From the NCBI GenBank assembly GCA_016839785.1, contig JAEOTQ010000081.1, positions 1 to 18,414 of the forward strand: a stretch of DNA of 18,414 nucleotides, in the 5' to 3' direction. The position numbers and the translations under genes are program-made. The DNA is from Candidatus Hodarchaeota archaeon (GTDB taxonomy: Archaea > Asgardarchaeota > Heimdallarchaeia > Hodarchaeales > Hodarchaeaceae). Under the pieces are notes generated by a model. It saw only the letters and a list, made by a program, of their open reading frames with translations. It searched no databases and had not been told where the DNA came from. Of the stretch, positions 2,301 through 18,279 are shown in pieces. Every line of letters starts with the position of its first letter. Position 1 is the first letter of the stretch.

Positions 2301-2549
2301 GTGTTTGTAGTGAATCGAAAACCGCTCCTAGGGTTGGGATATATGGTAATTCTTTCGTTTTTGATTATCCTGGCGATTTCATTTTCAGAAAACATGCAAA
2401 TTTGGCAGATTACTACTCTCTGGTTCGGTTTTGGAGCATTATACACCCTACTTACCTATAATAGATTTAAACGCCCTCTAACTCTTGTTAAATCCATACA
2501 AATGCTGCAATATCAAGTATTCAAACGTGAGCTTCAGAGAGAGAAATGA
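2301..2549 (+). CDS. Small hypothetical membrane protein (2 TM helices, basic C-terminus)
   Basis: 82 aa ORF with GTG start and two hydrophobic stretches (LLGLGYMVILSFLIILAISF; ITTLWFGFGALYTLLTY). No family recognised. Confidence 0.45.
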   Translation: MFVVNRKPLLGLGYMVILSFLIILAISFSENMQIWQITTLWFGFGALYTLLTYNRFKRPLTLVKSIQMLQYQVFKRELQREK

Positions 2550-2609
2550 GAAACGCTGGATGTATTGGGTGATCATAACTCTCCGTTTTTTTGTGATGTC
2601 TAAGAATAT

Positions 2610-2815
2610 GACTCCTAAGTAAACGAGAGGACTGACCATTTCCACACTAATTTAAGATTAGAGGCCCGTGTGCGATGAGTGTCCGCTTTTAAAGATCCGT
2701 TTCGTGTTTTCTTTTGAAGAAAGCATGCATCGCTTATCGGTTAGTGCGTGGCGGTCGGGCAGTACCCTTCTGGATAACCCGTAGACTAGAGGCGCCCATA
2801 TCCTGTTCCTCTCGT
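2610..2815 (+). repeat. Intergenic structured element, copy 1 (long, variant extension)
   Basis: GACTCCTAAG at 2610, core AACGAGAGGACTGACCATTTCCAC at 2622-2645, hairpin CTAAT-ttaag-ATTAG, then GCCCGTGTGCGATGAGTG. A GC-richer extension ends in TCCTCTCGT (2807-2815), complementary to core 2623-2631. Confidence 0.9.
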
Positions 2816-2954
2816 ACTGAGGACACGTTCCTCTCACGAATCCAACACGTCCGTAGAGAATCGCTAAACCCGAAAAATTCCATGAGAACGAAATGTCAAG
2901 GTCGGTATTCTTAAAAATGAGGGAAACCATGAGAAATAACAATTACAAGTTGGA

Positions 2955-4334
2955 GTGGAAAGACTTCTGATCAAAGAGCGTTCATTTCATTCGAAGTTTT
3001 TAATCTTCTTGGTCCTGACAGGCGTAATAAAGCTCTCGTTTCAGATTTCTACGATTGCTACAATTACTACAAATCAATCAAGTCAATTGTGTTTAGAATC
3101 TCCGGGGCTTGCAAATCAAAAAAAACACCCAAGAATGCACAATCTCAACATCCCACCTAGATCAGGATTGCTCCTTAGTACACGAAGAATAAGCGAAGAT
3201 ATGATCAATTCTCCTATTAGAATTCAGTCTGAAGCTCAGCTTCTTGAGTTAGGATTGCCAGGGAAGGGAACTCAGGAAGACCCATATTTGATATCTGGAC
3301 TGGTAATACAAGAAGATTTCGAACCATATTCGCGCGGTATCGCAATCAATAATACAAAATCATTCATTAAGATTATGAACTGCTCGGTCACAGGTCGGAC
3401 AGCTTTAGAGATAGAAAACGCCGCGAATTTAATCATAGCTAATTGTGAGTTCCAAGCGATGTGGTTTGATTTGAGAATAAGCCAGTGTCATAATCTACAG
3501 ATTTATAATAATACGGGTTATGAATCAGCTTCAATAGGAGATAGTCCAGAAATCTCAATATCTAGGAGTTATGATATTGCGTTCTTTAAGAATACTTGCC
3601 CGAGTATTAAGGTGTACAGGGGTAGTAACATTAACTTAACGGAGAATCTATTTAGGAATGACAATTACATTGCAATTGCGATATCGGGATCAAACAATAC
3701 TCGAATTGTGAATAATTACTGTGTGAATCCAGGAAATACAGGGATAAATCTATATGAAAGCAGTCAGTGTTCCATAGTCAACAATTTTTGCAATAGGTCA
3801 AAGACAGGGATTAGTTTAGAGTTTGGATGCGATACTAACAAAATCAGTAATAATACAATATTAAATTGTAGTCGGGGAATTTCCATCCATGGAGCAGCAG
3901 AAGAAAATATCATTAAAGAGAATATCGTAATTGGAAATTTCTGGGGGATCATTGTTGAACCAGACGGGAGAAATATATTCTATAAGATCTTCCCTGCGAA
4001 CAATCAAGTCTTTAAAAATGTCTTTCAGGACAGTCGCCGTCAAGGAGGATATGATTTAGGGACAAAAAATGTATACAGGTACAATTATTGGGGAGACTGG
4101 GTGACAAATTCCTCGGATGACAATCACGATGGAATTCTAGACGACCCCTATCCATTAGAAGGAGGAAAGAATTATGATCCATACCCCCTGGCTTCGAGAC
4201 AGGCGCTAGAAGATATTACAATCAGTTCGATCACCATTCCACCCTCTACTGGTATAGCCCAAAAAGAGATCATTTTGGGAGGGGCCATCATCATAGGCTT
4301 TTTGGTGGTTCGGATTTACCGAAAAAGAAAGTAG
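2955..4334 (+). CDS. Exported right-handed parallel beta-helix (NosD/CASH, pectin-lyase-like) protein with C-terminal membrane anchor
   Basis: N-terminal hydrophobic segment; GKGTQEDPYLI motif; repeated GIxL..S.NN.I.NN beta-helix units; NYWGDW...DGILDDPY...DPYPL; C-terminal TM followed by RKRK. Confidence 0.85.
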   Translation: MERLLIKERSFHSKFLIFLVLTGVIKLSFQISTIATITTNQSSQLCLESPGLANQKKHPRMHNLNIPPRSGLLLSTRRISEDMINSPIRIQSEAQLLELGLPGKGTQEDPYLISGLVIQEDFEPYSRGIAINNTKSFIKIMNCSVTGRTALEIENAANLIIANCEFQAMWFDLRISQCHNLQIYNNTGYESASIGDSPEISISRSYDIAFFKNTCPSIKVYRGSNINLTENLFRNDNYIAIAISGSNNTRIVNNYCVNPGNTGINLYESSQCSIVNNFCNRSKTGISLEFGCDTNKISNNTILNCSRGISIHGAAEENIIKENIVIGNFWGIIVEPDGRNIFYKIFPANNQVFKNVFQDSRRQGGYDLGTKNVYRYNYWGDWVTNSSDDNHDGILDDPYPLEGGKNYDPYPLASRQALEDITISSITIPPSTGIAQKEIILGGAIIIGFLVVRIYRKRK

Positions 4335-4409
4335 ATTCCCTTCTCAATGAAAAAATTGATCTCATCAATTTTGGAAATTCAAGAAAATGTCTTTCTCCCT
4401 TAAATCAAA

Positions 4410-4535
4410 GTGATCACCAGACATAAGAGCAGAAAGCCCTTGAACACAGTCTATTAGACTCCTAAAGGCTATTATTTCTAAATAAACGAGAGGACTGACC
4501 ATTTCCACAATGTTAAAAGACAATAGTCCCATGGA
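4410..4535 (+). repeat. Intergenic structured element, copy 2
   Basis: AGACATAAGAGCAGAA 4419-4434, GACTCCTAAAGG 4457-4468, core AACGAGAGGACTGACCATTTCCAC 4485-4508 (identical to copy 1 core). Confidence 0.9.
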
Positions 4536-4613
4536 TGTTCGAAATAAAGATATTTATTCTGACATTTCTCGGTCCTTGGAATATTTTGACAAATAAATTT
4601 CTATAAACTCGTT

Positions 4614-6542
4614 TCAATAAACAGAACCGAGGTGCTTTCGATATTGTCTCTGCTGCTCGAAAGAATTGTGAATGAAGTAATACAAAGTAAAAACTAAAAT
4701 ATTTAGATAAAGGAACATACGAGGTTTGATCACAAGAAAAGTTCCATTGAGTAAATTATGGAATATAATAAAAATAAGAGTAATGAAAACAGAATATTTG
4801 TGAATAGTACGCAGGATTTTTCGATAAGATCTAACTTCTAAGACCAGAAGAAGACCAGAAACAGTAAAAATTATCCCAGAAATAAAACCAAGTGTTGCTA
4901 GTAATTGTCCCACATCATAACGGGTTGTAGGAAAAGCAAAAAATACGCTTGGAAAATCAAGAATAGCTGATAAATAGGAGGTCACATCTGAGAACTCCGA
5001 AAGAGATTTCACATGTCCATGCAAAACCATGTAATGAAATACAATAGATATTGCAAGGAGGGAGCCAGAAAAATAATGAAACCATAAAACTTGCTGTCTT
5101 AACCGTCGTTTCAATACAGGGAGGGTTAGATAAAAGCTAGTATAGAACAAAATGAAGGAAAATAATCCAATATAATGGCCAATTTCAGACAAAGGTATGA
5201 AAAGGCCAGTTTCTTGGTCAAAAAACGCAGGGATTAACCCAATCGGAAGAATATAAAAGGGAGTATGTGAGTCAGGAATCTCTAATAACTGAGCAACACC
5301 CCCTTCACTAAACGCACCGATAACAACTGTCCCCAGAGAGTGAGTAGCACATTTAAGATAAATGTTTTGGGCGATAATACCGATAATAGACATCAATCTA
5401 CGATATGAAAGATCAGGATTAGATTGTTGATCCATCCAAGTCATATTAGCAGATATAATTACATTGAGTTGAGCAGATTCAACCCAAGATTGATCTAACG
5501 CTACCTTTCTCAAGGAATTACGTGCATCTCCCTCGTAAAAGTGCATAAGAGAATGATTAGTCAAGGAGTAAGAATATATACCCATAGATAATCCTTTTAC
5601 TTCACCAACAACTAAACGAATATCGATAATGGATACATTTTCTGTGGGAAAATTAACATCTATGCTGTCATTCAAGATATCACTAATAATCGAAAGGGGG
5701 ATTAATCCACTAACATAGTCCCGAGTGGATTTGCGTTTCGCAATAGCTTGCTCTACAGTCATTTCTTCCGTATTTATCACGGATTGAACATCTAACTTCG
5801 AAAATCTCTTTAATTTACCCTGATCTTGACCAACAGGTAATATCATAAGAGGTTGTAATGATATGTGCAGCAATTCTTTAACTCGTGAGGCATTAAAATC
5901 TGAAATTATCCAGGTGTTTAAATTCAAAGAGGACAGTTGGAGAAGAAAATTCTGAAGAGCATGACCTACCTCTAAATGGACATACTGAATTCCTCTTGTG
6001 CCATAACGATCTGTAGTTCGATTAAAATCTACAATAATGTAGAATATAGTAGTAATATTAGAAACAGAATTCTGATCTTCACTCAAAAGAGCAGGTACTA
6101 ATTGAGATTCGTTATTAATAGAAGAATGTAGCTTTAAAACGTGTTCATCGGAATTATAACTATAGTATCCACTACTGAAATGAGAATTTCCATTTTGTTG
6201 TATAAAAATCTTTAATGGATAAGTAGCACCTGCAGAAGGAACGGTTCGAAACCCTGGACCATGAGTGGTACCTTGTAACGCCCACAGGAGCTGAGACAGT
6301 TCTTCAACACTTAGATCATGAGGATACAAATTAGTAGTTACCTTTGATTGATGAATAGCAGTACTTAAGGGAAGATGACCAATTAAATCAGGTTCAGGTA
6401 AAGCTAAATTATCGGATTCGAAGGGAATGAATTCTATGATGATAGCTAATATGGAGAAAACAAGGACAACTGCTGCAACTACTAATTTCAGCTGTGTAAC
6501 GGTTGGAAAGGCGGTTTTCATAATTGATGGCAACTTAAACAA
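4614..6542 (-). CDS. Tandem SagB/ThcOx-type nitroreductase domains fused to a C-terminal ferric-reductase/cytochrome b-like membrane domain
   Basis: LSQLLWALQG, RTVPSAGATYPL, RYGTRGIQYVHLEVGHALQN. The second domain has AIAKRKSTRDY and IAQNIYLKCATHSLGTVVIGAF. C-terminal TM helices carry two H-x13-H pairs. The start codon is uncertain (TTG, or the downstream ATG of MKTAF). Confidence 0.85.
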   Translation of the reverse strand: MFKLPSIMKTAFPTVTQLKLVVAAVVLVFSILAIIIEFIPFESDNLALPEPDLIGHLPLSTAIHQSKVTTNLYPHDLSVEELSQLLWALQGTTHGPGFRTVPSAGATYPLKIFIQQNGNSHFSSGYYSYNSDEHVLKLHSSINNESQLVPALLSEDQNSVSNITTIFYIIVDFNRTTDRYGTRGIQYVHLEVGHALQNFLLQLSSLNLNTWIISDFNASRVKELLHISLQPLMILPVGQDQGKLKRFSKLDVQSVINTEEMTVEQAIAKRKSTRDYVSGLIPLSIISDILNDSIDVNFPTENVSIIDIRLVVGEVKGLSMGIYSYSLTNHSLMHFYEGDARNSLRKVALDQSWVESAQLNVIISANMTWMDQQSNPDLSYRRLMSIIGIIAQNIYLKCATHSLGTVVIGAFSEGGVAQLLEIPDSHTPFYILPIGLIPAFFDQETGLFIPLSEIGHYIGLFSFILFYTSFYLTLPVLKRRLRQQVLWFHYFSGSLLAISIVFHYMVLHGHVKSLSEFSDVTSYLSAILDFPSVFFAFPTTRYDVGQLLATLGFISGIIFTVSGLLLVLEVRSYRKILRTIHKYSVFITLIFIIFHNLLNGTFLVIKPRMFLYLNILVFTLYYFIHNSFEQQRQYRKHLGSVY

Positions 6543-6590
6543 CGATGAGCAAACAAGAAAATAATTGAAGACGAAACTTCTCCTACTTCC

Positions 6591-6740
6591 TCATTCAGAT
6601 TCGTCTTGTTCCTTTTCCTTGGAAGTACGAGGGATTTTTTCTTTCATCTTGCGTTTGGTATCTTCAATCTGCTCTATAACTTCTTTATTAATATCTCCTT
6701 TTTTTGATTTGCGAATAAAAGGAGGTTTTTTCCTAAACAT
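6591..6740 (-). CDS. Small highly charged hypothetical protein (49 aa), not in the supplied ORF track
   Basis: Manual translation: MFRKKPPFIRKSKKGDINKEVIEQIEDTKRKMKEKIPRTSKEKEQDESE*. ATG at 6740, TGA at 6593-6591. Co-directional with, and just upstream of, the nitroreductase gene. Confidence 0.5.
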   Translation of the reverse strand: MFRKKPPFIRKSKKGDINKEVIEQIEDTKRKMKEKIPRTSKEKEQDESE

Positions 6741-6851
6741 TCTCTTTCTCAAGTAAATCATTCTGAATTAATCCTTTTAAAGGTACCTTCCGGATTTATA
6801 TTCCTTGTCGGCGTATTCTTCAGCTTAGATAATTGTCTCGGAAATCCTTTT

Positions 6852-6916
6852 AACGAGAGGCCTGAAAATTTCCACACTAATTGGGAATTAGTAGCCCTTG
6901 TGCGATTAGTGGCAGC
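6852..6916 (+). repeat. Intergenic structured element, copy 3
   Basis: Core AACGAGAGGCCTGAAAATTTCCAC 6852-6875, perfect hairpin ACTAATT-ggg-AATTAGT 6876-6892, then AGCCCTTGTGCGATTAGTGGCAGC. Confidence 0.9.
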
Positions 6917-7135
6917 TATGAATCTATGGTATGTTAAAGGAAAAAGTGAAGAGAATCGATCACCACTGGGATAAATATCGGAAAAAGAGACGATCTCTGT
7001 TTCAGGTTAAATTTTGCCTTCTTAACATTAGATAAAAATGAAATGGTTCTCAAACTTCATAAAGAGAGTGAATGATACTTCAGTAAGAAGAAATTTTGAA
7101 TTCATCAGTTATATATAATCAACTATCCGTAACTT

Positions 7136-7675
7136 ATGAGGGAACAATTGACTGATATTAATCAAAAGAATAAGTATATAATTCGAGTCTCTTTATTATG
7201 CCATCCTGAGGACCTACTGTTCCCGTTAATCCGTGCATTGATTCAAAAATATAAAGGACAAACGACAAATCAAACATTTGACGACTTAACTCTCACTGCT
7301 TCAACAATAAACATCCGGATTGCAAATAGAATTGTAAAAGTGATTTTAGTTCAACCTATTGGTCGTGGATTCTTTAACAAAATGTTCGGTCACCACTTTC
7401 GTTCTAGTGGAGCCATTATTGCATTTTCAAAAGATAACAATGATTCATTTGAAGCATCAAGGGCCTTATACCAGCGTTTCAAGGATATCAATACTGCTGA
7501 TGTTCCAATTGCATTTGTTGGGATCCAAGAGTCACCTGATGACCTTGTTACTGAGGAAGCAATCCAGCTGGAGGTTGGTACCTCTGAATTCTATTATTTC
7601 ATTCAGCATAATGATTTCGAAGTATTAGGGAAAATCCTCCTCTCCTTAGTAACAAAAATCTTCACACCAGCTTAG
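7136..7675 (+). CDS. Small Rab/Arf-like GTPase-fold protein with degenerate nucleotide-binding motifs
   Basis: 179 aa. YIIRVSLL (beta1), VKVILVQPIGRGFF (G3 region), SSGAIIAFSKDNNDSFE and DVPIAFVG align by eye with the Rab pattern GASGAIIVFD..N.ESF / VPIVLVGNK. GxxxxGKS, DxxG and NKxD are absent. Confidence 0.7.
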   Translation: MREQLTDINQKNKYIIRVSLLCHPEDLLFPLIRALIQKYKGQTTNQTFDDLTLTASTINIRIANRIVKVILVQPIGRGFFNKMFGHHFRSSGAIIAFSKDNNDSFEASRALYQRFKDINTADVPIAFVGIQESPDDLVTEEAIQLEVGTSEFYYFIQHNDFEVLGKILLSLVTKIFTPA

Positions 7676-7749
7676 CAGTTGTTATTTACAGCTACATATA
7701 GGTATGGAAATAGAGAATTAGTAAGAATTGAGAAAATTAAAAGAGAGAA

Positions 7750-7895
7750 GGACCACTAGACATAAGACCAGAATTTGCTTTAAAAACAACACACACTCTC
7801 TTTGACTCCTGAAGGCTTTTTTTTCAAAAAAAACGAGAGGACTGACAATTTCCACATTGTTTCCAAAACAATAGCCCGTGGGCGATTCGTGGGAG
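7750..7895 (+). repeat. Intergenic structured element, copy 4
   Basis: AGACATAAGACCAGAA 7758-7773, GACTCCTGAAGG 7804-7815, core 7832-7855, perfect hairpin ATTGTTT-cca-AAACAAT 7856-7872, AGCCCGTGGGCGATTCGTGGGAG. Confidence 0.9.
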
Positions 7896-8167
7896 TAAAT
7901 ATGAATCATCCGATAAATTCTCTAGATAAGCCTATATCACGGCTTGACCAGTACACTTGGACTTTGTAGAAGAATACAGAACATGGCAGTAAATAATGAA
8001 AGTATACTGGAAATCAGTATAATGGGCAATAATATGAAAATAAGTACGCACTTTGGCAGTTCCTATAGATATAACAAGTATTGGTTACAAATCGTATCTA
8101 ACAAAAATCTTATAAGAGAAAAGTTGGCTTAAGAGAATACCAACATGGATTACTGGGACGCCCGAAG

Positions 8168-10354
8168 ATGAAACTATCTTTATGGGGAAGTATCATTTTA
8201 ATTCTCGTCTTTACTCTCTCAAATCGAGAAAATATTGACTTTTTATGCCCAGATATGTTAATGAAGAATCATCACCAGTCAAAAATCACTTTAATTGGTA
8301 AAAAATCAACAGTTGCACCTTTATTCCCATTTTCTAATAATTTTGGCAATTTAACAAGTCATGATGAACCAGTTTACAGTGTAGCCTTTTCTCCAGATGA
8401 AAAAGTTCTTGCTTCTTCAGGGGGAGATGGATCTATTCATTTATGGAATATTTCGGATGGTACAATAATTTCTAAGCTACAAAGCCATTTTTACGATGTA
8501 ATTACAGTTGATTTTTCTTCAAACGGTAAGACACTTGCTTCCGCGGGTCGGTTTGATAAAAAAGTAAATATCTGGGATATACCCTCAAAAAAACTCGTAA
8601 AAACTTGGAATCATACATTTACGGGTCGAAACCTAGCTTTTTCACCCATTAATAACAATATATTAGCTATCCCTAAGAATAATTCAGTTATTATCAAAAA
8701 TATAACAACTGGTGTCATTGTTCAGACCCTGATTGGACATACAGGCCTTGTCACTTCTATAGCTTTTTCACCCGATGGATCATTGATTGCTTCAGGATCT
8801 ACGGACAATACTGTTAAATTATGGAACGTGTCATCTGGAGTAGAGGTTAGAACCTTTTCAGGCCATTCTGATGACATTCACACGTTGGCCATTTCTGCCA
8901 ATGCACAGATAATCGCCACTGGTGGGAAAGATTCAAAAATTATTGTCTGGGATGTAAGCACGGGAGGGGCCCTTCAAACGCTCCTCAGCCACGAAGGAGC
9001 GGTTAATTCACTGGAATTTTATCCTTTGGATCCCGCAATTATAGTTTCGGGAGGAGGAAGTGTTACGTATGATTCACCAATTAAATTTTGGAATATAACC
9101 TCTGGGAAATTAGTGGATTCACTTATAGGGCATCAAGATACCGTTAATACTATTGCATTTTCTCATAATGGAAAATTTCTAGCCTCGGGTAGTAGTGATC
9201 GTGTAATTAAACTTTGGGGAAATTTTCCTTCCCTGTTTATTAATACTTCAATTGATTACTGGCCTACTTCTACTCCTGAAGATCAGAACCTGAATTCATC
9301 ATTATTGGATCAAATCTATTTCCCTGAATTACATAGTCTATTAGTTCTACGAAATGGGAAGCTAGTTCATGAGAAGTATTATACTGGGGATAGATATCAG
9401 TTCACTAGCAAATCTAAACATGCTCTTTTCTCTGTAACTAAAAGCTTCACCTCAACTCTGATTGGGATTGCACTTGACAAGGGATTCATTAGTAATATCA
9501 ATCAAAAAGTCCTTGATTTCTTTCCAGAGAAGACCTTCTGTAATATGAATTCTTTAAAAGAAGCAATCACTATTGAGCATCTCCTTACGATGACAACTGG
9601 ATTAGATTGGTACGATAAAGTCGATTATTTACCTCTAGCTTGTAGTTTAGATATGGTGCAATTTACGCTAGATAGACCTATGAGAAGTGAACCTGGCTCC
9701 GAAGTGAATTATAACAGCGGAGCCTCTCATCTTTTGGCTGTAATCCTACAAAAAGTGTCAGGTCTTCCTATAATGGAATTTGCATTGAAATATCTTTTTG
9801 AACCCTTAGCCATAGAAAAATCTGATATATCGTGGATGGCGAATTCTCTTGGCCAAGTTCTTGGAGGTAATGGGTTATATCTAACCCCTCGTAATATGGC
9901 GAAATTAGGCCAGCTTTATTTGAATAACGGTTCTTGGAACGGGCAAGATATTGTGTCTACTAATTGGATTACTGTTTCTACCAGTAATCATGGAGTTTTT
10001 CGGCATCATCCGTATTCTATAACAGCGCCCATGCAATATGGGTATCATTGGTGGCCCTATGAGAGTACGTGTTTTAATGGATATTATGCACAAGGATCTG
10101 ATGGACAATTCATTTTTGTAATACCTCAATACAATCTAGTAATTGTCTGCACTTCTGGCGTATGGTGGCGTGATGCATACTTTTTTGCGGATAAAATTTT
10201 CAAAGCGATTATTCCTGACTCAGATCAAGTTTCAGTCTCCACAACTGATGACATAAAAAAATCGACGGATATCACTCAATCCACAAATTGGCTATCTATA
10301 CTCCCGATTTCCCTATCTTTGATTCTGCTCGTACTATTCCGAAAACGTCCATAG
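8168..10354 (+). CDS. Exported WD40-repeat / beta-lactamase-family (class C-like) serine hydrolase fusion with C-terminal TM anchor
   Basis: Signal-like N-terminus; about 7 WD40 repeats (GHTGLVTSIAFSPDGSLIASGSTDNTVKLWN); SxxK (SVTK), HLLTMTTG, YNS, LTPRNMAKLGQLYL, YGYHWW; Ser/Thr linker, TM, FRKRP. Confidence 0.9.
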   Translation: MKLSLWGSIILILVFTLSNRENIDFLCPDMLMKNHHQSKITLIGKKSTVAPLFPFSNNFGNLTSHDEPVYSVAFSPDEKVLASSGGDGSIHLWNISDGTIISKLQSHFYDVITVDFSSNGKTLASAGRFDKKVNIWDIPSKKLVKTWNHTFTGRNLAFSPINNNILAIPKNNSVIIKNITTGVIVQTLIGHTGLVTSIAFSPDGSLIASGSTDNTVKLWNVSSGVEVRTFSGHSDDIHTLAISANAQIIATGGKDSKIIVWDVSTGGALQTLLSHEGAVNSLEFYPLDPAIIVSGGGSVTYDSPIKFWNITSGKLVDSLIGHQDTVNTIAFSHNGKFLASGSSDRVIKLWGNFPSLFINTSIDYWPTSTPEDQNLNSSLLDQIYFPELHSLLVLRNGKLVHEKYYTGDRYQFTSKSKHALFSVTKSFTSTLIGIALDKGFISNINQKVLDFFPEKTFCNMNSLKEAITIEHLLTMTTGLDWYDKVDYLPLACSLDMVQFTLDRPMRSEPGSEVNYNSGASHLLAVILQKVSGLPIMEFALKYLFEPLAIEKSDISWMANSLGQVLGGNGLYLTPRNMAKLGQLYLNNGSWNGQDIVSTNWITVSTSNHGVFRHHPYSITAPMQYGYHWWPYESTCFNGYYAQGSDGQFIFVIPQYNLVIVCTSGVWWRDAYFFADKIFKAIIPDSDQVSVSTTDDIKKSTDITQSTNWLSILPISLSLILLVLFRKRP

Positions 10355-10403
10355 TTTTTCCTAGCTAAGCATTTTTTCTGGAATGTATACTTTGAATTTT
10401 GAT

Positions 10404-10673
10404 ACTCTATTAGACTCCTTAAGACAATTTTTAATAGTAAACGAGAGGACTGACCCTTTCCACACTATTTTCCAATTAGTAGCCCGTGTGCGATTAGTGG
10501 CAGCGTATTAGAAAACACTAAACATATCGGAAAACCCGCCACGCGTATTTTTTATAGGAAAAACTGCTCTAGCAACGGGATTTTTCTCTAGAAAGATCCC
10601 AGCACTCGTTTACCATCTCATGGTTATCGGTGCCAATCCCCATGGCATATCGCTGATGGCAAAATGGATTCAT
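10404..10673 (+). repeat. Intergenic structured element, copy 5 (long form, candidate ncRNA)
   Basis: GACTCCTTAAG at 10413, core 10440-10463, AGCCCGTGTGCGATTAGTGGCAGC, and a ~170 nt extension shared with copy 7, including a 26-nt exact match (10596-10621 = 13465-13490). Confidence 0.9.
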
Positions 10674-10693
10674 CCTTTCAAGGTTCGTTACGT

Positions 10694-11734
10694 TCATTTA
10701 ATTAGATTTGCTGTTTTTTGAATAGCTCGTTCTGCATCCTGGGTTATCCTATCGATTATTGAGGCGACTCCTTTGATACTATCGATAAGCCCAATACTTT
10801 GCCCAAGGAGGACAGCCCCATCATGGATATTACCTTGATAAGCTAAATCATAAGCTTGAGCTGCTTTAGCTAACTCTTCCGTACTCATTACTACTTCCTG
10901 AGCTAATTTTTCTTCTTTTTTAGTTACACGATTATGTCCTAGACTATACTTATTCTTCCAAAGGCGAATCGGCCCTAAAATCCCTGTCACAAGCGTTGTA
11001 TCTGGGGCTCTAGCAGGGGGAACGACGTTTTTATAAACCTCATGGAATTCGCATTCTTTAGAAGCGATAAATCTGGACCCCATGGCGATTGCTCCTGCAC
11101 CGAGGGATAAGGCGGAAGCTAAACCTTCCCCTGTAGCAAATCCGCCACAGGCTATCCGAGGTATAAGGGGAAATCGTTGCTGGACTTGCTGGAGAAGGAC
11201 AAGGGTACTTACATTTTCATAAGACTGGTGGCCCCCTCCTTCACTCCCTGTGACTACTAATCCATCAACCCCAGCATCCACACATTTCTCTGCTAACCAG
11301 AGGGCAGGTGCAACGTGAAAATGGACAATCTGCGAGACCTCTTTTAGCTCTTGGAACGTTTTCGATTGGGGAAGTACTTTAGCGGACCCTGCACTAGTTA
11401 AAACGTATCGACACTGTTCTTTAATTTTAGGATTATCCAGAATGAATTCTGGAATTTCATCACACAAAGTCTTGGCATATGGCTCTAATCGAGAAGTTCT
11501 TATATTAAATCCAAAAGGTTTGTCGGTATGCTCAACGACATATTGCATATTTTGTTTCATTTCTTCAATCGGATCTTTATCCTTGCTTAAGAGGCCAATT
11601 TGAGATAAGACACCTAATCCTCCCGCTTCAGAGACAGCTACAGTTAAATGTGTAGTATGGAAGGGAGCCATGGGCGCAGCAATTATAGGATACTTAATTC
11701 CTAACATTTTTGTGATCTGTGTTTCGAATGGCAT
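10694..11734 (-). CDS. Nitronate monooxygenase / FabK-like FMN-dependent oxidoreductase
   Basis: LGIKYPIIAAPMA, AVSEAGGLGVL, TDKPFGFNI, GSEGGGH, IACGG...LSLGAGAIAMGSRFIASKE, GQSIGLI. Confidence 0.92.
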   Translation of the reverse strand: MPFETQITKMLGIKYPIIAAPMAPFHTTHLTVAVSEAGGLGVLSQIGLLSKDKDPIEEMKQNMQYVVEHTDKPFGFNIRTSRLEPYAKTLCDEIPEFILDNPKIKEQCRYVLTSAGSAKVLPQSKTFQELKEVSQIVHFHVAPALWLAEKCVDAGVDGLVVTGSEGGGHQSYENVSTLVLLQQVQQRFPLIPRIACGGFATGEGLASALSLGAGAIAMGSRFIASKECEFHEVYKNVVPPARAPDTTLVTGILGPIRLWKNKYSLGHNRVTKKEEKLAQEVVMSTEELAKAAQAYDLAYQGNIHDGAVLLGQSIGLIDSIKGVASIIDRITQDAERAIQKTANLIK

Positions 11735-11870
11735 TACTCTTCAATGAAATAAGGAATTTTTCAAAAGGTTTCTGAAATGAAGAATATGAAGAATATGAAA
11801 AACTTGATTATTGGATTTGTACCTAACATATAGGATCAAAACAACAGGCAAATAAAAGAACTAGAAGGAG

Positions 11871-11993
11871 GTGACCTTCAGATATAAGACCAGAAACCAC
11901 TTCAAACATACTTTTACGACTCCTTAAGGCTTTTTCCTAGAAATACGTGAGGACTGAAAATTTCCACCTTTCTAGTAAGAAATATCCAGTGGG
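11871..11993 (+). repeat. Intergenic structured element, copy 6
   Basis: AGATATAAGACCAGAA 11880-11895, GACTCCTTAAGG 11918-11929, core TACGTGAGGACTGAAAATTTCCAC 11944-11967, hairpin TTTCT-agta-AGAAA. Confidence 0.85.
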
Positions 11994-12144
11994 TGAGGAG
12001 AACCAAAACGCTTCTAAGAATGCTTAAGGTTAATATGAGTACGAAATGAAACGAACTTTTCATAACGAAATGTACATTCACCGAATTTCTGTAATCTGAA
12101 AATATTTAAACGACTTTTGAAAGAGAGACAACTTGTGATTTTAT

Positions 12145-12495
12145 ATGGTAACTCAACAACAAGAAAGAATACTAATTAGTACAACCTATGAGATTCCTGG
12201 ATATAAGATTGATCAGCATTTTGGATTAGCATTTGGCGCGACGGTAAGAAGTCGTGGAATGGGAGGCGATTGTTTGGCGGGTTGCCAATCATCTTGTGGA
12301 GGCGAAGTCACTGCATTTACCGAAATGGCACTTGAGGCAAGAAATCAGGCGATTAATCGCATGTTTGAGGATGCAGCTCGGATGGGGGCGAATGCGATTA
12401 TTGGATTAAAGTTCGACAGTGATCAAATCGGTCAAGGTGGCAATACCGCAACAATTGCTTATGGAACCGCGGTTAGAGTATCACCAGTCCGATAA
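12145..12495 (+). CDS. YbjQ/UPF0145 family protein
   Basis: STTYEIPGYKI, GLAFGATVRSR, GGEV..FTEM..EARNQAINRM...A..MGANAIIGLKFD, AYGTAV. Confidence 0.92.
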   Translation: MVTQQQERILISTTYEIPGYKIDQHFGLAFGATVRSRGMGGDCLAGCQSSCGGEVTAFTEMALEARNQAINRMFEDAARMGANAIIGLKFDSDQIGQGGNTATIAYGTAVRVSPVR

Positions 12496-12497
12496 CG

Positions 12498-13112
12498 GTG
12501 AATACGATAAATTTATCCATCACAATTAAGTTGTTACTTAAACGTTGGCAATTATCTTGGCGTTTTAGGTTCGCTCACCATCCAATATGCGCGAATTACC
12601 AGACTCATATCTGGAAAATCGGAGGCCTCTATCTTTGCCAGGGGTGCAGCCTGGTTTACATTTCTTTCTTAATAACACTATTGTTGCTAATCAATTTTCA
12701 AATGACTTTTCTCTCAATCCAATATTTATCCCTAGGAATAGGTCTTTTAGTACCGATTCTATTAATTGAAAAATATGATATCAATCAAAGAATTACTAAA
12801 CGATTAGCAAGAATAGCAACGGGTATTGGATTAGGAGTTTCTTTTTCGGCATTTATGCTTCATCCAGACATCATTATCAAGTTTGTAGGACTCATCATCA
12901 CGATAGGGGGATTTTATACATTCAAAGCTATTAGACGTACAAAGCAGAAAGTGGATAAGTGTCAAACATGTGCCGACCACCAAAGTCATAAAATATGCTA
13001 TGGGTTACTTTTGGAATCCGAGGCAATGAGAAAGTATTCAGAATATGCCTCTGATTTATTACAAGCCGACTTGAAAGCTGCTTTCGCAAAAAAAATCCAA
13101 TCAGACGCGTAA
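12498..13112 (+). CDS. Cys/His-rich multi-pass membrane protein (DUF2085-like), probably co-transcribed with the YbjQ-family gene
   Basis: Starts 2 nt after the YbjQ stop. HHPIC..YQTH...LCQGC, then about 4 TM helices, then CQTC..H....C. Confidence 0.7.
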   Translation: MNTINLSITIKLLLKRWQLSWRFRFAHHPICANYQTHIWKIGGLYLCQGCSLVYISFLITLLLLINFQMTFLSIQYLSLGIGLLVPILLIEKYDINQRITKRLARIATGIGLGVSFSAFMLHPDIIIKFVGLIITIGGFYTFKAIRRTKQKVDKCQTCADHQSHKICYGLLLESEAMRKYSEYASDLLQADLKAAFAKKIQSDA

Positions 13113-13266
13113 TTTGTGTGTAGAATTTACCTTACTGAAGGTAAAAAGAGAGGAGAAAGTGAGGATTATGCCTCAAGAGCTTCTAACCTCAACATCTATT
13201 GGAAAGAAATTAGCAGATGGGTGAGGAATAAAGATGAGAACTCTTAGTATATACGTCCCTATGAGC

Positions 13267-13543
13267 GTGACTGTCAGAGACAAAGCCAGAACTGTAATCA
13301 ACACACTTATTACGACTCCTTGAGGTTTTTTCCTAGAAATACGAGATGACTGAAAATTTCTACACTATTTTAAGAATAGTAGCCCGTGTGCGATTAGTGG
13401 GAGCCAGCTAAACATGTCGAAAAACCTCCACGCGTACACCACTGCTCTATCAAAGGGATGTTCTATCCCAGCACTCGTTTACCATCTCATAGTTATCGTC
13501 GCCAATCCCCATGGCTTTTCGCTGATGACAAAATGGATTCATT
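13267..13543 (+). repeat. Intergenic structured element, copy 7 (most complete form, about 277 nt, candidate ncRNA)
   Basis: Contains all blocks: AGAGACAAAGCCAGAA 13276-13291, GACTCCTTGAGG 13314-13325, core 13340-13363, hairpin ACTATT-ttaag-AATAGT, AGCCCGTGTGCGATTAGTGGGAG, and the extension to AAAATGGATTCAT. Confidence 0.9.
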
Positions 13544-13641
13544 TTCAGAGTTGTGAAAGGAATGAAAACTTCAAATATCTCTTTGTACTCTAAGACTCAC
13601 TTAGAATGAAATCAATATAAGATCTTGGGAGACAAATTGGT

Positions 13642-16131: not shown

Positions 16132-16170
16132 TTCCTTTTTCCATGAGTGAAATATAAAGGACCTTGCTGG

Positions 16171-16246
16171 GCTTTCTAAAAAGAACGAGAGGACTGACAC
16201 TTTCCACTTTGTTTGAAGACAATAGCCCGTGTGCGATGAGTGGGAG
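16171..16246 (+). repeat. Intergenic structured element, copy 8
   Basis: Core AACGAGAGGACTGACACTTTCCAC 16184-16207, hairpin TTGT...ACAA, AGCCCGTGTGCGATGAGTGGGAG. Confidence 0.9.
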
Positions 16247-16315
16247 TGTAATGATCAAATGTAAGCTATCTTTTTCTTTCAAGAGGTCAAAATTGTAATT
16301 ACTTTTCTCTTCCTC

Positions 16316-18196
16316 TCAAAGGGTTTTTTCGAAAAAATCACAGATTTTCATTATTTTTACTCTTCTATTCTTTTTTCGATAAATACCATGACCCTCGTCA
16401 TCAAATGGCAGCTTTTCATAATCTATATTGTGTTTTATCAGTTCTTCTTCTACAACTTTAACGTTTTCAGGAGTGACATTAGGATCGTTCATGCCCTGAA
16501 CAATTAACACGTTTCCAGTAATGTTTTGGATATAGTTAATAGGTGAACCCTCTTTATATCTCTCAGGGACTGCTTGAGGGGAACCACCCATCATTTCCTC
16601 ACTATAAGGACGGATATCAGGTCGGGTAGTTTCATAATCCACAATGAGGTCGGTCATACCACACACAGGAGCACTGGCAGAAAAAATGTCTGGAAATTTA
16701 GTAATTCCATACCAGGCCGAGAAACCACCATAACTAGTCCCTGTAATGCCGATTTTTGCGTCAGATGGCAAATATCTATTTATAAGCGCTTTTGCACCTG
16801 CAGCAATATCTTCTTGTTCATTGCTACCCCAACCCCCTACTTTAATTAGCTCTCGAAACTTGATCCCATACCCTGTTGAACCACGATAATTAGGATCCAA
16901 AACAACGAAACCTCGTGAAACAAAATATTGGATTTCCGTATTTAAAGCATCCTCAGAATGGAATGTTGGACCTCCGTGAACATAGACTATACATTTATTA
17001 TTAGGATCAATGGGAGTATATACCCAGCCATGAATAGGTTTATTATCGAAAGAAATCCATTCAAATTCTTTTGCTTGAGTTAGATGAGACTGTTGAACTT
17101 TCAATTTCTCAAAATTATCAAATAGAAAGTCAAAGTCGTTAAGTGTTAAATTATTGATATCCCTAGTAGGGAAAGAAACCAAAGTTTCTGGCTGGATAGA
17201 GCTATAGTAAGAACCGATCCACGTTCTAGAATCGATTGGGAAAGTTGGTAGGAGTGTTCCCGTTTCAAACCTAGGAAAGGGAACTAGTGTCCTATCATTC
17301 AAATTATAAAAGTAAACTGATTGCTTTGCTTTGATAATTTCGATAAGAACTAGAATATTAGGATCAAACCGACTCACATACGCCTTGGAGAAATCATATT
17401 TACGATTTGGAGTTTCAGGGGACTCCAAAATCCAGAAAACTTCTTCCTTGTCTACAGAAAAAATACCAGCCAGACGCTTATCTAGTCTCTTGTCATTAAA
17501 GGAATCAGTTACAAAAACAATATTTCGAGAATCTGGAAGCCAACTAGCCTCGACTTTTGCTTTTTTACCAAAATTAAGGATTTCTCTGTCATCCTCACCA
17601 TCGACATTTATAAGCCAATACTGCCTGCCTGCAGGATCGATATCACTTCTAGAATAGAGTAATCTGGATCCTTCTAAGTTTAATTGAGAATAATTCCATG
17701 CAGGTTTTAGAACGGAGGTTAAATGATGGATTTCATTTTTATTTTCGACATTTTGAGCATATAGATGAAAAATCTCGGTTTCTTTCTTGGTTTGCGGATC
17801 AAAATTAGCAAAATAATACATTAAATCGCCCTTTGGGGCTATTTCTGAACCTCTGAGATAAAAATCTGGAGTTTCCTTGGTTAAAGCGTGCATTTTCTTC
17901 GGTTCATCTAGAAAAACCCGAAATAACGCGATTCTTTCATTTCGCGCTTTATCTTCAGCAACTATTACAGATTTCGAGTCAGGCCACCATTTTGTGAAAT
18001 AAGTAAGCTCTTCGGTTTCAGTAAGAACATCTAACTTCCTATCTTCATCCTTATAGTCAATTAAAAACACATCTACATTAGGATGGAGACCAAAAATCGT
18101 TAAAGCGATGTTTTGATTAGCTATTGCCCTTTCAGCAGAAAATATTTGAGAGATATTTAACAATTCATCAATAAATGTTTCAGAGCCAAGATCCAT
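16316..18196 (-). CDS. S9 family peptidase (acylaminoacyl/prolyl oligopeptidase): beta-propeller plus alpha/beta hydrolase
   Basis: VHGGP, PNYRGSTGYG, nucleophile GTSYGG, QGMNDPNV (Asp), DEGHG (His). Confidence 0.93.
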   Translation of the reverse strand: MDLGSETFIDELLNISQIFSAERAIANQNIALTIFGLHPNVDVFLIDYKDEDRKLDVLTETEELTYFTKWWPDSKSVIVAEDKARNERIALFRVFLDEPKKMHALTKETPDFYLRGSEIAPKGDLMYYFANFDPQTKKETEIFHLYAQNVENKNEIHHLTSVLKPAWNYSQLNLEGSRLLYSRSDIDPAGRQYWLINVDGEDDREILNFGKKAKVEASWLPDSRNIVFVTDSFNDKRLDKRLAGIFSVDKEEVFWILESPETPNRKYDFSKAYVSRFDPNILVLIEIIKAKQSVYFYNLNDRTLVPFPRFETGTLLPTFPIDSRTWIGSYYSSIQPETLVSFPTRDINNLTLNDFDFLFDNFEKLKVQQSHLTQAKEFEWISFDNKPIHGWVYTPIDPNNKCIVYVHGGPTFHSEDALNTEIQYFVSRGFVVLDPNYRGSTGYGIKFRELIKVGGWGSNEQEDIAAGAKALINRYLPSDAKIGITGTSYGGFSAWYGITKFPDIFSASAPVCGMTDLIVDYETTRPDIRPYSEEMMGGSPQAVPERYKEGSPINYIQNITGNVLIVQGMNDPNVTPENVKVVEEELIKHNIDYEKLPFDDEGHGIYRKKNRRVKIMKICDFFEKTL

Positions 18197-18231
18197 AACA
18201 AATACACATCTTCATATCGATATACGCTTTT

Positions 18232-18279
18232 TACATAAGACTATTTCTAAAAAGAATTGTGAGGACTAATACTGTCCAG
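18232..18279 (+). repeat. Intergenic structured element, copy 9 (degenerate)
   Basis: ACATAAGAC, then TTTCTAAAAAGA (shared with copy 8), then ATTGTGAGGACTAATACTGTCCAG 18256-18279, matching the copy 8 core at 17 of 24 positions. Confidence 0.6.

Follow-up and report, generated by a model that had tools for sequence, protein, structure and literature searches.

Truncated copies of the 23S rRNA 3' end and trailer separate accessory gene units in a Hodarchaeota archaeon

The window analysed here, 18,414 nucleotides of a Candidatus Hodarchaeota contig (JAEOTQ010000081.1), carries accessory genes, six on the plus strand and four on the minus strand, with an intergenic repeat between them (Table 1). 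The genes form units of one or two, and one copy of the repeat lies in each gap between units, between open reading frames with Pfam support. The open reading frames that overlap the copies are short and unsupported (for example, 2658-2942 and 7718-7909, both on the minus strand). A 24-nt core was found by pattern search, with at most three mismatches, in eight copies, all on the plus strand and 980-2844 nt apart; none was expected in 200 dinucleotide shuffles of the window. The initial annotation of this DNA had described nine intergenic cores on one strand. Eight of them were recovered in this way. The ninth (18256) was marginal and was absent at E<=1e-3 in the profile search of the genome. 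The site-gene-site layout that had been described, with one copy between successive units and strict co-orientation of the copies independent of gene direction, was reproduced.

Table 1. Genes and repeat copies in the window (strand of copies given in the rRNA sense)
Feature	Position	Strand	Evidence and remarks
Transglutaminase-like protein, 624 aa	173..2047	-	PF01841, E 1.1e-9
Copy 1	2614..2854	-	Core reverse complement 2622-2645; profile hits 2614-2682, 2686-2854; RF02540; order: core, hairpin, extreme 23S 3' end, internal deletion, antisense 23S segment
Right-handed beta-helix / NosD-like protein, 459 aa	2955..4334	+	PF13229, PF05048
Copy 2	4403..4573	-	Modules A and B, core 4485-4508, hairpin, degenerate distal-23S remnant; pattern and profile; tail aligns with long-form end in two relatives
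Nitroreductase-domain protein, 642 aa	4614..6542	-	PF00881
Copy 3	6852..6917	-	Core 6852-6875, hairpin, last ~22 nt of 23S; pattern and profile; without trailer modules A/B, unit-specific flank touches core
Small Ras-like protein, 179 aa	7136..7675	+	PF00071, E 1.3e-3, weak, below cut-off
Copy 4	7734..7896	-	Complete short form, core 7832-7855; pattern and profile; order: module A, module B, AT-rich hairpin, core, hairpin, 23S 3' end
WD40 beta-propeller fused to beta-lactamase-family domain, 728 aa	8168..10354	+	PF00400, PF00144
Copy 5	10401..10695	-	Long form: module B, core 10440-10463, ~230 nt antisense 23S 3' domain; profile; cut off at stop of NMO gene
Nitronate monooxygenase (NMO) family, 346 aa	10694..11734	-	PF03060
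Copy 6	11862..12000	-	Short form, core 11944-11967; pattern and profile
Two-gene unit: YbjQ-like, 116 aa, and 204-aa protein	12145..13112	+	PF01906 (YbjQ-like)
Copy 7	13264..13545	-	Long form: modules A and B, core 13340-13363, ~180 nt antisense 23S 3' domain; profile; BLAST match to a relative's native 23S at 13380-13513
Kelch-repeat / Big_7 / fn3 protein, 829 aa	13642..16131	+	Pfam scan
Copy 8	16169..16257	-	Core 16184-16207, hairpin, 23S 3' end; pattern and profile; modules upstream of core lost
Prolyl-oligopeptidase (S9) family, 626 aa	16316..18196	-	PF00326
Copy 9	18223..18278	-	Marginal, degenerate, module B to core; E 0.085 (window-only profile of full-length copies)

The repeats in the window are direct repeats that reproduce the 23S rRNA 3' end with its trailer, read in antisense and truncated to differing extents. 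The Rfam family RF02540 (LSU_rRNA_archaea) matched copy 1 at 2686-2835 on the minus strand (model positions 2733-2873, 82.3 bits, E 6.5e-24), which is above the gathering score of 50 bits, the covariance-model threshold used here for membership as a gene fragment. This match was obtained in a scan of 341 nt; a scan of the whole window with default Rfam filters missed the rRNA. The same model gave 131 bits (positions 2721-2973) for the copy on contig C106 of the same genome and 123.3 bits for a relative's copy. Copy 1 is 92% identical to the full copy on C106, and its antisense 23S segment contains the sarcin-ricin loop, TCCTCTCGT, at 2807. In an alignment to the native 23S gene and trailer of a relative (G005), the core, module B and module A are contiguous native downstream sequence, and the position directly 3' of the mature 23S end also agrees with three native metagenome loci. 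In the rRNA sense, the copies run from the 23S 3' end through a short variable hairpin, a 23-nt core block and an AT-rich hairpin to modules B and A.

The 23S portion of a copy comprises about 22 to about 310 nt of the 3' end, and the trailer portion about 150 nt. The 24-nt core, which had initially been taken as the conserved element, is only a part of the conserved unit. Within the window this unit spans 65 to about 295 nt, and the fullest copies reach about 470 nt. The proposal of a novel structured recombination site or a mobile RNA or single-stranded DNA element did not hold either, the element being an antisense, variably truncated 23S 3' end with the 3' strand of the processing stem. 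A match to a known Rfam family had been named beforehand as evidence against that proposal, and RF02540 is formally such a match.

The full-length fragments all begin within about 15 nt of one 23S position (model position ~2720). This common start could reflect common descent or a specific site. Full copies contain a 9-nt inverted repeat, ACGAGAGGA...TCCTCTCGT, the second arm of which is missing from short copies. Many copies end at discrete points, namely after the core or hairpin, at +65 or at +385, and the core persists in copies with both flanks gone. In copies found by module B alone, the identity was 0.91 for the core and 0.67 for the adjacent 23S end. In 37 of 53 and in 63 of 75 copies, the flanking hairpins have a stem of 5 bp or longer, compared with 13% and 19% of shuffles. 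Pairing in these hairpins is kept across many different stem sequences on both flanks of the core. No dyad symmetry was visible in the core on inspection. RNAalifold predicted no pairs in an alignment of 20 copies, and no long palindrome.

The core together with modules B and A is the 3' strand of a long pre-23S processing stem, the partner of this strand being the 23S leader. The leader/trailer duplex had an energy of -119 kcal/mol in G001 (-71 +/- 6 for shuffles) and of -79 kcal/mol in G008 (-58 +/- 6 for shuffles). In four circularly permuted pre-23S-like contigs, ...CCTATCGT is joined to the leader inside core-equivalent sequence. Both the stem complementarity and the ligation junction were observed in relatives, the leader of the window's genome being unassembled. 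Bulge-helix-bulge processing stems and circular pre-23S intermediates of archaea are described in the sections of the literature used here (PMC7038931, PMC10515664, PMC7714728), in which the ligation junctions of pre-rRNA map to the bulge-helix-bulge (PMC7038931). The core and modules A/B correspond to the 3' strand of such a stem, and the circular-junction contigs of the relatives fit the described ligation at the motif. These sections have one stem per rRNA gene (PMC7038931), whereas there are about 20 extra genomic copies of the 3' strand here, without matching leader copies.

The profile search of the window's genome gave 25 hits on 7 of the 248 contigs (66 kb of 4.04 Mb). Clustering and dispersal had been left as alternatives by the initial annotation, and the copies are clustered. 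All 129 profile hits, on 35 sources, lie on one strand within each source. Among 115 cores, with a median spacing of 1801 nt, none of the 24 multi-copy loci showed mixed strands. Genus-wide BLAST found copies in 21 of 22 genomes, with at least two hits in 19. There are about twenty copies per genome, and arrays in the genus reach at least 40-55 kb with approximately one copy per 1.8-3 kb. The named records that carry the core belong to Candidatus Hodarchaeota or Heimdallarchaeota, in agreement with the Asgard host suspected earlier.

In two relatives, G005 and G008, the arrays start directly behind an intact 23S gene and are co-oriented with it. On contig C44 of G005, the 23S gene (model positions 1019-2987) is followed by its trailer and then by one extra trailer copy on the same strand. 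The 18 copies on contig C8 of G008 all lie on one strand; the series ends in the 3' part of the native 23S gene, and the upstream 23S runs to the contig end. Repeats co-oriented with and downstream of the intact gene, the mark of an RNA-gene 3'-end repeat island, are present on both contigs. Each of the four array ends observed in relatives is distal to the 23S gene. The 23S gene of the window's genome (G000) is not assembled, and its adjacency to the array is inferred from these two relatives. In a group of Asgard archaea, the copies mark a fast-changing accessory-gene block just behind the rRNA gene.

The nitroreductase, Ras-like, NMO and NosD units have different neighbours in different species. 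The nitroreductase unit (4574-6915) shows 89% DNA identity in two relatives, with other neighbours there; the Ras-like protein is 90-96% identical to proteins in the arrays of three relatives; and an NMO ortholog lies in one relative's array in a different neighbourhood. The YbjQ pair sits outside the array in two relatives, its neighbours here differ from those in relatives, and no second copy of it was found in the window's genome. Among the block ends near an element, 31 of the 33 downstream ones lie in the stretch from module A to the 23S end, and 22 of the 29 upstream ones lie just behind an element. By part, the BLAST block ends lie in modules A/B (12), the core (10) and the hairpin or 23S end (9). 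Visual inspection of nine unit sets placed the switch in co-inheritance at the core in most of them. The gain, loss and reordering of units between relatives, with shared blocks ending inside the element, which the initial annotation had proposed to look for, were observed.

With moderate confidence, we attribute the arrays to successive insertions of small gene units, anchored by homology, at the 3' end of the rRNA operon, and to the reshuffling of these units there. The conserved operon end would serve as a landing pad, and incoming DNA with such a segment would recombine with a resident copy through the shared homology. The incoming DNA might consist of circles that had looped out between two repeats, or of foreign fragments for which the conserved 23S end is the anchor. 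The segment would be duplicated at each insertion, either in a Campbell-type manner or by a homology-anchored join whose far end is illegitimate; such a far end would account for the variable truncation on the 23S side. Recombination between direct repeats would then delete, excise and reshuffle units of one or two genes, and a dedicated recombinase would be unnecessary. How a new gene comes by its first flanking copy is not accounted for by homologous recombination alone. The conservation of the core, the discrete copy ends and the switch of co-inheritance at the core would fit a site-specific crossover in the core as well or better.

Such a crossover would belong to a site-specific cassette system, a kind of 'rDNA integron', in which a recombinase encoded elsewhere, of an unknown family or one outside the search, or the host Xer exchanges strands inside the 23-nt core. 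The flanking hairpins would be accessory structures, and the units would travel as circles between core sites. This explanation is unlikely in our estimation, although it has several points in its favour. The core is the best-kept block and survives the loss of both flanks, both hairpins keep pairing, and in several sets (among them nitroreductase, Ras-like and NosD) the left flank follows the unit upstream of it and the right part the unit downstream. The tRNA/tmRNA-gene analogues, as described in the excerpts used here, are integrase-driven (PMC2764846; 10.1101/2020.12.28.424599). However, a search for two families, tyrosine (PF00589) and serine (PF00239) recombinases, gave none on the array contigs of six genomes (G000, G002, G004, G008, G011 and G019), and the copy-rich G004 has one Xer-like tyrosine recombinase and no serine recombinase. 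The earlier statement that the window contains no recombinase gene was borne out. No recombinase was detected by Pfam among 10 proteins encoded at one array boundary and 10 encoded behind one native 23S gene. The completeness of the MAGs is 84-99%, so that a recombinase could be encoded in DNA missing from the assemblies. Against the cassette system there are also the lack of visible dyad symmetry in the core and the scatter of the block ends over modules, core and hairpin with no single point; the conservation of core and hairpins can be a legacy of the native pre-rRNA stem, which is functional.

A non-autonomous MITE- or SINE-like element that derives from the rRNA 3' end and copies itself into nearby intergenic regions, with the genes as bystanders, seems quite improbable. 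The copies are indeed many, diverged and truncated, full ones have the 9-nt inverted repeat, and the YbjQ pair is copy-flanked here and outside the array in two relatives. However, the copies are not dispersed and are strictly co-oriented with the 23S gene, and the inverted repeat, incomplete in short copies, is not combined with dispersed copies as in MITEs or IS derivatives. The YbjQ pair has other neighbours here than in relatives, which does not agree with simple insertion into an ancestral order of genes. It is very improbable that the copies are selected cis-acting signals for each gene (terminators, insulators against rRNA read-through or RNA processing sites) rather than scars or substrates of recombination. 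One copy in each inter-unit gap, and T-rich runs and hairpins beside the core on the rRNA-sense strand, would suit such signals, but the copies are oriented independently of the genes, many are truncated at varied points, and their sequence is the native rRNA flank. An RNA-mediated origin, in which read-through pre-rRNA or mRNAs would be cut and ligated at the bulge-helix-bulge by tRNA-splicing endonuclease and ligase and copied into DNA, appears extremely improbable. The ligation junction of the circular contigs falls inside core-equivalent sequence, and the specific flank of one unit abuts the core start in three genomes. However, most copies extend beyond the cleavage site through modules B and A, so that the source would be uncut DNA or precursor; and, since all copies share one orientation, the arrays lack leader-strand copies.

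Homology-anchored insertion at the rRNA operon end, the reading we prefer, can be compared with known systems. The eukaryotic R1/R2 retrotransposons and Pokey are autonomous and insert inside the 28S gene of tandem rDNA units. What they have in common with the present arrays is a landing site, conserved and safe, in the region of the large-subunit rRNA gene, whereas here non-autonomous gene units pile up behind a single rRNA operon. Integron arrays, including archaeal integrons and CALINs, often have no linked integrase, in the account drawn on here (PMC9668308), which is a point of resemblance. The site-gene-site layout is similar, as are the units of one or two promoter-independent genes reshuffled between genomes (PMC9668308). 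The same account describes attC as an imperfect palindrome that has R/L boxes and is recombined by IntI in the form of a folded single strand, and most cassettes as co-oriented (PMC9668308), whereas here the repeat is rRNA-derived and the genes point both ways. No IntI-type tyrosine recombinase with attI was found next to the arrays searched, the repeats do not show the imperfect palindrome of attC with its R''/L''-L'/R' boxes (RYYYAAC...GTTRRRY), and the genes are not mostly co-oriented with the sites. The initial view that the repeats are not attC sites agrees with their rRNA origin and the lack of predicted pairs.

Islands at RNA genes are close to the arrays as well. The Prochlorococcus tycheposons form islands at tRNA genes, with tyrosine recombinases and replication modules (bioRxiv 10.1101/2020.12.28.424599). 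As far as that description goes, integration is repeated at one RNA gene, older inserts are displaced outward and partial gene copies are left across a hypervariable island, as would suit our arrays. The tycheposons target tRNA genes, in contrast to the rRNA operon end here, where no such modules were detected. In the high-plasticity regions of Dehalococcoides, direct repeats of the ssrA (tmRNA) 3' end lie downstream of ssrA, 11 of them in strain VS (PMC2764846). In the parts of that report used here, as in our arrays, a single-copy stable-RNA gene is followed by co-oriented 3'-end copies, strain-specific accessory genes lie between the repeats, and the region varies among close relatives. Its repeats are 19-22 bp long, with integrase/recombination gene clusters beside ssrA (PMC2764846), whereas here neither a tyrosine nor a serine recombinase was found on the array contigs of six genomes. 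The present repeats, in contrast, are 65 to about 470 nt long, consist of the 23S end and the processing-stem trailer, number about 20 or more per genome and separate units of one or two genes, without an integrase found, in an Asgard archaeal host. On the reading preferred here, the arrays would be a variant, and a new one, of the tRNA/tmRNA-fragment islands.

The element that separates the gene units of the window is an antisense copy, on the + strand, of the 3' end of the 23S rRNA gene and its trailer. The longest copies extend about 385 nt past the start of the core and have a common end point. The rRNA identity surfaced only once Rfam was run on a full-length copy of a relative; the opposite strand of this copy matched archaeal LSU rRNA (model 2721-2973 of 2987, 123 bits). 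Archaeal LSU rRNA was also found at 2686-2835 (-) of the window (82.3 bits, E 6.5e-24), and a copy on another contig of the same genome, C106, was likewise LSU rRNA (131 bits). Alignment to the native 23S gene on a relative's contig (model 1019-2987) showed that the block behind the hairpin corresponds to the very end of the 23S gene on its 3' side. In this relative, native sequence downstream of the gene supplies, without a break, the hairpin, the core and modules B and A. Copy 1 retains the antisense sarcin-ricin loop. In view of the LSU matches in the window and on C106, copy 1 is a full copy with an internal deletion.

The Rfam check that the initial annotation had proposed gave a divided answer: the whole window returned nothing at E<=1, and a scan of 341 nt (2560-2900) returned LSU rRNA well above the gathering score. 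A scan of 10330-10720 gave no useful match (HIV_FE by chance, E 2.6). Short rRNA fragments can be concealed by Rfam filters. Such repeats produce stray partial 23S matches and can be overlooked in a default whole-window Rfam scan; they would also be expected to break up assemblies.

Eight copies of the 24-nt pattern were recovered where the initial annotation had reported them, all on the + strand, with a chance expectation of 0. The ninth copy, behind the last gene, gave a weak profile match that is marginal only (E 0.085). One copy lies in each gap between units, as had been described, and the Pfam-supported ORFs of the window give 10 genes in 9 units, with 6 genes on the + strand and 4 on the - strand. 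The 24 nt do not make up the full element, since the alignments show a much longer conserved unit; its parts are listed in the table. Copies 5 and 7 continue for a further 180-230 nt beyond the terminal block.

Parts of the element in + strand order, and positions of the Ras-like protein gene
Feature	Order	Coordinates	Sequence
Module A	first		GTGACCAnCAGACATAAGACCAGAA
Module B	second		GACTCCTTAAGGCT
AT-rich hairpin	third, between module B and core		
Core	fourth, between both hairpins		
Second hairpin	fifth, after core		
Terminal block	sixth		AGCCCGTGTGCGAkkAGTGGsAG
Ras-like protein		window 7136-7675; relatives' sequences L008:3931-4455, L016:4035-4568, L034:700-1233	

Stems of at least 5 bp were kept in 37/53 and 63/75 copies of the two hairpins despite many different stem sequences; shuffles formed such stems in 13% and 19% of cases, respectively. 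RNAalifold proposed a closed fold of the + strand for 11 long copies, which is now regarded as an echo of the antisense rRNA helices, and predicted no structure for a 20-copy alignment. No tRNA was found in the window by ARAGORN. Readings of the element as the 5' end of a group II intron (GUGYG after the hairpin), a C/D-box RNA, a guide RNA of TnpB or IscB, or an IS110 bridge RNA were considered and dropped. Small ORFs on either strand were rejected because hairpin indels break the frame and the start codon is unconserved.

All genomes compared were MAGs; that of the window comprises 4.04 Mb in 248 contigs and is 84.5% complete. Of clustering and dispersal, which the initial annotation had proposed to compare, clustering was borne out: a profile built from eight copies gave 25 matches confined to 7 of the 248 contigs (66 kb in total), on one strand within every contig. 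There is an extra fragment at the start of contig C63. Across the contigs compared, 129 profile matches in 35 sources kept to one strand in each source, and none of the 24 loci with more than one core was of mixed strand (median spacing 1801 nt). The sole orientation outlier noticed on a contig was an isolated 83-nt match to the 23S end and core in a relative (G011:C12:200814-200896, +), on the opposite strand and 300 kb from the array.

Within the genus, 5 of 22 genomes contained the strict core; outside it, none of 19 did. BLAST with a copy from G008, a relative, found matches in 21 of the 22 genomes of the genus, with at least two in 19, clustered and same-stranded per contig. One genome (G010, a scaffold with Ns) had degenerate copies only, and its native 23S was not found. 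Of five genomes from as many other genera, four gave a single 23S 3' match by BLAST and the fifth gave none. With at most one BLAST match per genome of another genus and none of 19 by the core, the feature was not found outside the genus among the genomes searched. The class-wide LSU search scored 2 candidates per genome. A contig of G033, which belongs to another family, ends at 23S model position 2717, approximately the start of the repeated part; this was rejected as a sign of repeats in another family, given at most one BLAST match per genome. In the named genome collection, the records with several core matches were all MAGs titled Candidatus Hodarchaeota or Heimdallarchaeota, and single matches in unrelated bacteria were set aside as chance. 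The viral contigs searched for the core and a first metagenome pattern search gave no match.

In two relatives the array adjoins the native gene. The 54.7-kb contig G008:C8 carries 18 copies on one strand and terminates in the 3' part of the native 23S, the sequence upstream of which reaches the contig end. On G005:C44, another trailer copy lies 3.6 kb beyond the native 23S and its trailer and shares their strand. On G011:C12, 11 copies across 40 kb run up to the end of a 525-kb contig. Each of the four array ends seen in closer relatives was the 23S-distal end. In the genome of the window, the 23S gene and leader are missing from the assembly.

The native 23S of G008:C8 (L078, about 53.9-54.7 kb, -) is interrupted by about 315 nt of intron-like sequence whose ends are complementary, between ...GGGAACGTGA and GCTGGGTTTAGACC...; the full-length array fragments share a start about 40 nt further downstream. 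A full-length 23S in the bin of G001 (C57:307-3242, L074) is only 74% identical to the array fragments in its 3' region (133 nt) and is without their expansion segment; a second, divergent operon or wrong binning of the contig may account for it. The genes directly behind the 23S of G005:C44 (L075, 2489-12610) include one for an N6/N4 DNA methylase and one for a protein with a Schlafen AlbA_2 domain, and look like defence-type cargo.

The leaders upstream of the 23S in two relatives are complementary to the hairpin, core and module blocks. The leader/trailer duplex was computed at -119 kcal/mol in G001, vs -71 +/- 6 with shuffled trailers, and at -79 kcal/mol in G008, vs -58 +/- 6. Four metagenome contigs (L093, L094, L095 and L099; 2460-3226 nt, three of them 3225-3226 nt) are circularly permuted 23S, in which some 30 nt of ligated trailer and leader link the 3' end of the 23S directly to its 5' end. 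Circular pre-23S rRNA of Heimdall-type archaea, once assembled, or head-to-tail copies would be expected to look like this. The junction of 3' end and leader lies inside core-equivalent sequence in all four. In archaeal pre-rRNA, bulge-helix-bulge cleavage and ligation map to the core-equivalent place (PMC7038931). From the leader complementarity and the junction position, the core is the antisense counterpart of the middle of the pre-23S processing stem's 3' strand. Its first nine bases (ACGAGAGGA, window 2623-2631) are identical to the universally conserved sarcin-ricin loop motif. Full copies carry the true loop further on in inverted orientation: at 2807-2815 in copy 1, where the internal deletion leaves a distance of 184 nt, and about 314 nt off in the full-length consensus (alignment A7). 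Since the core motif is the inverted loop motif, the trailer could pair with the loop in the pre-rRNA.

The shuffling of whole units anticipated in the initial annotation was found on comparison with relatives: orthologous units occur in other orders and with other neighbours between species. Reshuffled units include that of a nitroreductase (window 4574-6915; 89% DNA identity), a Ras-like unit (91%) and a nitronate monooxygenase unit (90%), and a 996-aa NosD protein, among others, likewise stands in changed neighbourhoods. The YbjQ pair, single in this genome, lies between two copies here and outside the array in two relatives. The Ras-like protein (174-179 aa, weak Ras-family match) is 90-96% identical in four species, and its gene is the last ahead of the first array copy in one relative. 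As a rule, a shared block begins directly behind one element and stops within the next, which agrees with breakpoints inside the element. By BLAST, 22 of 29 upstream block ends near an element fell at +71 to +400, and the 33 downstream ends near an element included 12 in modules A/B, 10 at the core and 9 in the hairpin or 23S end. These figures are blurred where BLAST alignments extend through homology common to the repeats.

A single genome holds two subtypes of the 23S fragment (window 10516-10607 vs 13405-13476; alignment A3). They differ in extended helix tips, e.g. GGGAT-TTCTTTCAAGAAAG-ATCCC vs GGGAT-GTTCT-ATCCC, and may have been copied from different source rRNA genes. When short assembled metagenome contigs of four runs were placed on the window, 12 of the 13 listed joints connected positions in different element copies; these are taken to reflect other copies in the metagenome, with no bearing on excision or circles. 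Contig depth at 2457-3070 and 12895-13508 was 10-20x local, and up to several hundred at position 2771, which fits recruitment of other organisms' contigs by conserved rRNA-like sequence.

As for the mechanism, we infer that homology-anchored serial insertion and reshuffling at the end of the rRNA operon is the probable explanation. Copies of the 3' end of the operon itself would serve to build and reshuffle the array. A six-frame search for tyrosine and serine recombinases (PF00589, PF00239) found none on the array contigs of six genomes; one copy-rich genome (89% complete) has one Xer-like gene and zero serine recombinases. By Pfam, no recombinase was present in 10 proteins at an array boundary or in 10 behind a native 23S.

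The main rival is a hidden site-specific system acting at the core, which seems unlikely to us. In nine unit sets compared by eye, the upstream unit mostly keeps the left flank, and the downstream unit keeps the hairpin/23S part. The nitronate monooxygenase unit is an exception, abutting the core in one genome and module A in the window. Because of this exception and the spread of BLAST ends over about 200 nt, the reading of a switch at the core is weaker than first thought. Preferred truncation points on the 23S side lie after the core or hairpin, at +65 and +385, and copies detected by module B alone have a consensus identity of 0.91 in the core vs 0.67 in the adjacent 23S end. An 'rDNA integron' of Hodarchaeota-type Asgard archaea, a dedicated gene capture on the rRNA operon, is also a doubtful prospect. 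Its recombination site would be the strand of the pre-23S processing stem that bears the bulge-helix-bulge, with a hairpin of conserved structure on either side, and its enzyme a recombinase of an unrecognised family or machinery also recognising the stem. Conservation of the site to the same degree as the rRNA flank would be what allows units to pass between species.

If homology-anchored insertion is correct, these Asgard archaea have an accessory-gene array of 40-55 kb immediately downstream of their only rRNA operon. The landing pad would be conserved like rRNA itself and therefore usable across species. By their record titles, the host archaea are Hodarchaeota/Heimdallarchaeota, which are placed near eukaryotes in published trees. 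Among the array genes are those for small GTPases and for WD40, Kelch and beta-helix proteins, which are of interest with respect to eukaryote-like traits.

No description of 23S-end repeat arrays was found in the literature searched, outside of which lay subscription journals and supplements. In archaeal integrons the attC sites are canonical and most cassettes are co-oriented (PMC9668308); the present array has neither feature, and the earlier view that it is not an integron holds. The closest described cases are the repeats of the ssrA 3' end downstream of ssrA in Dehalococcoides (PMC2764846) and the partial-tRNA islands built by tycheposons (10.1101/2020.12.28.424599).
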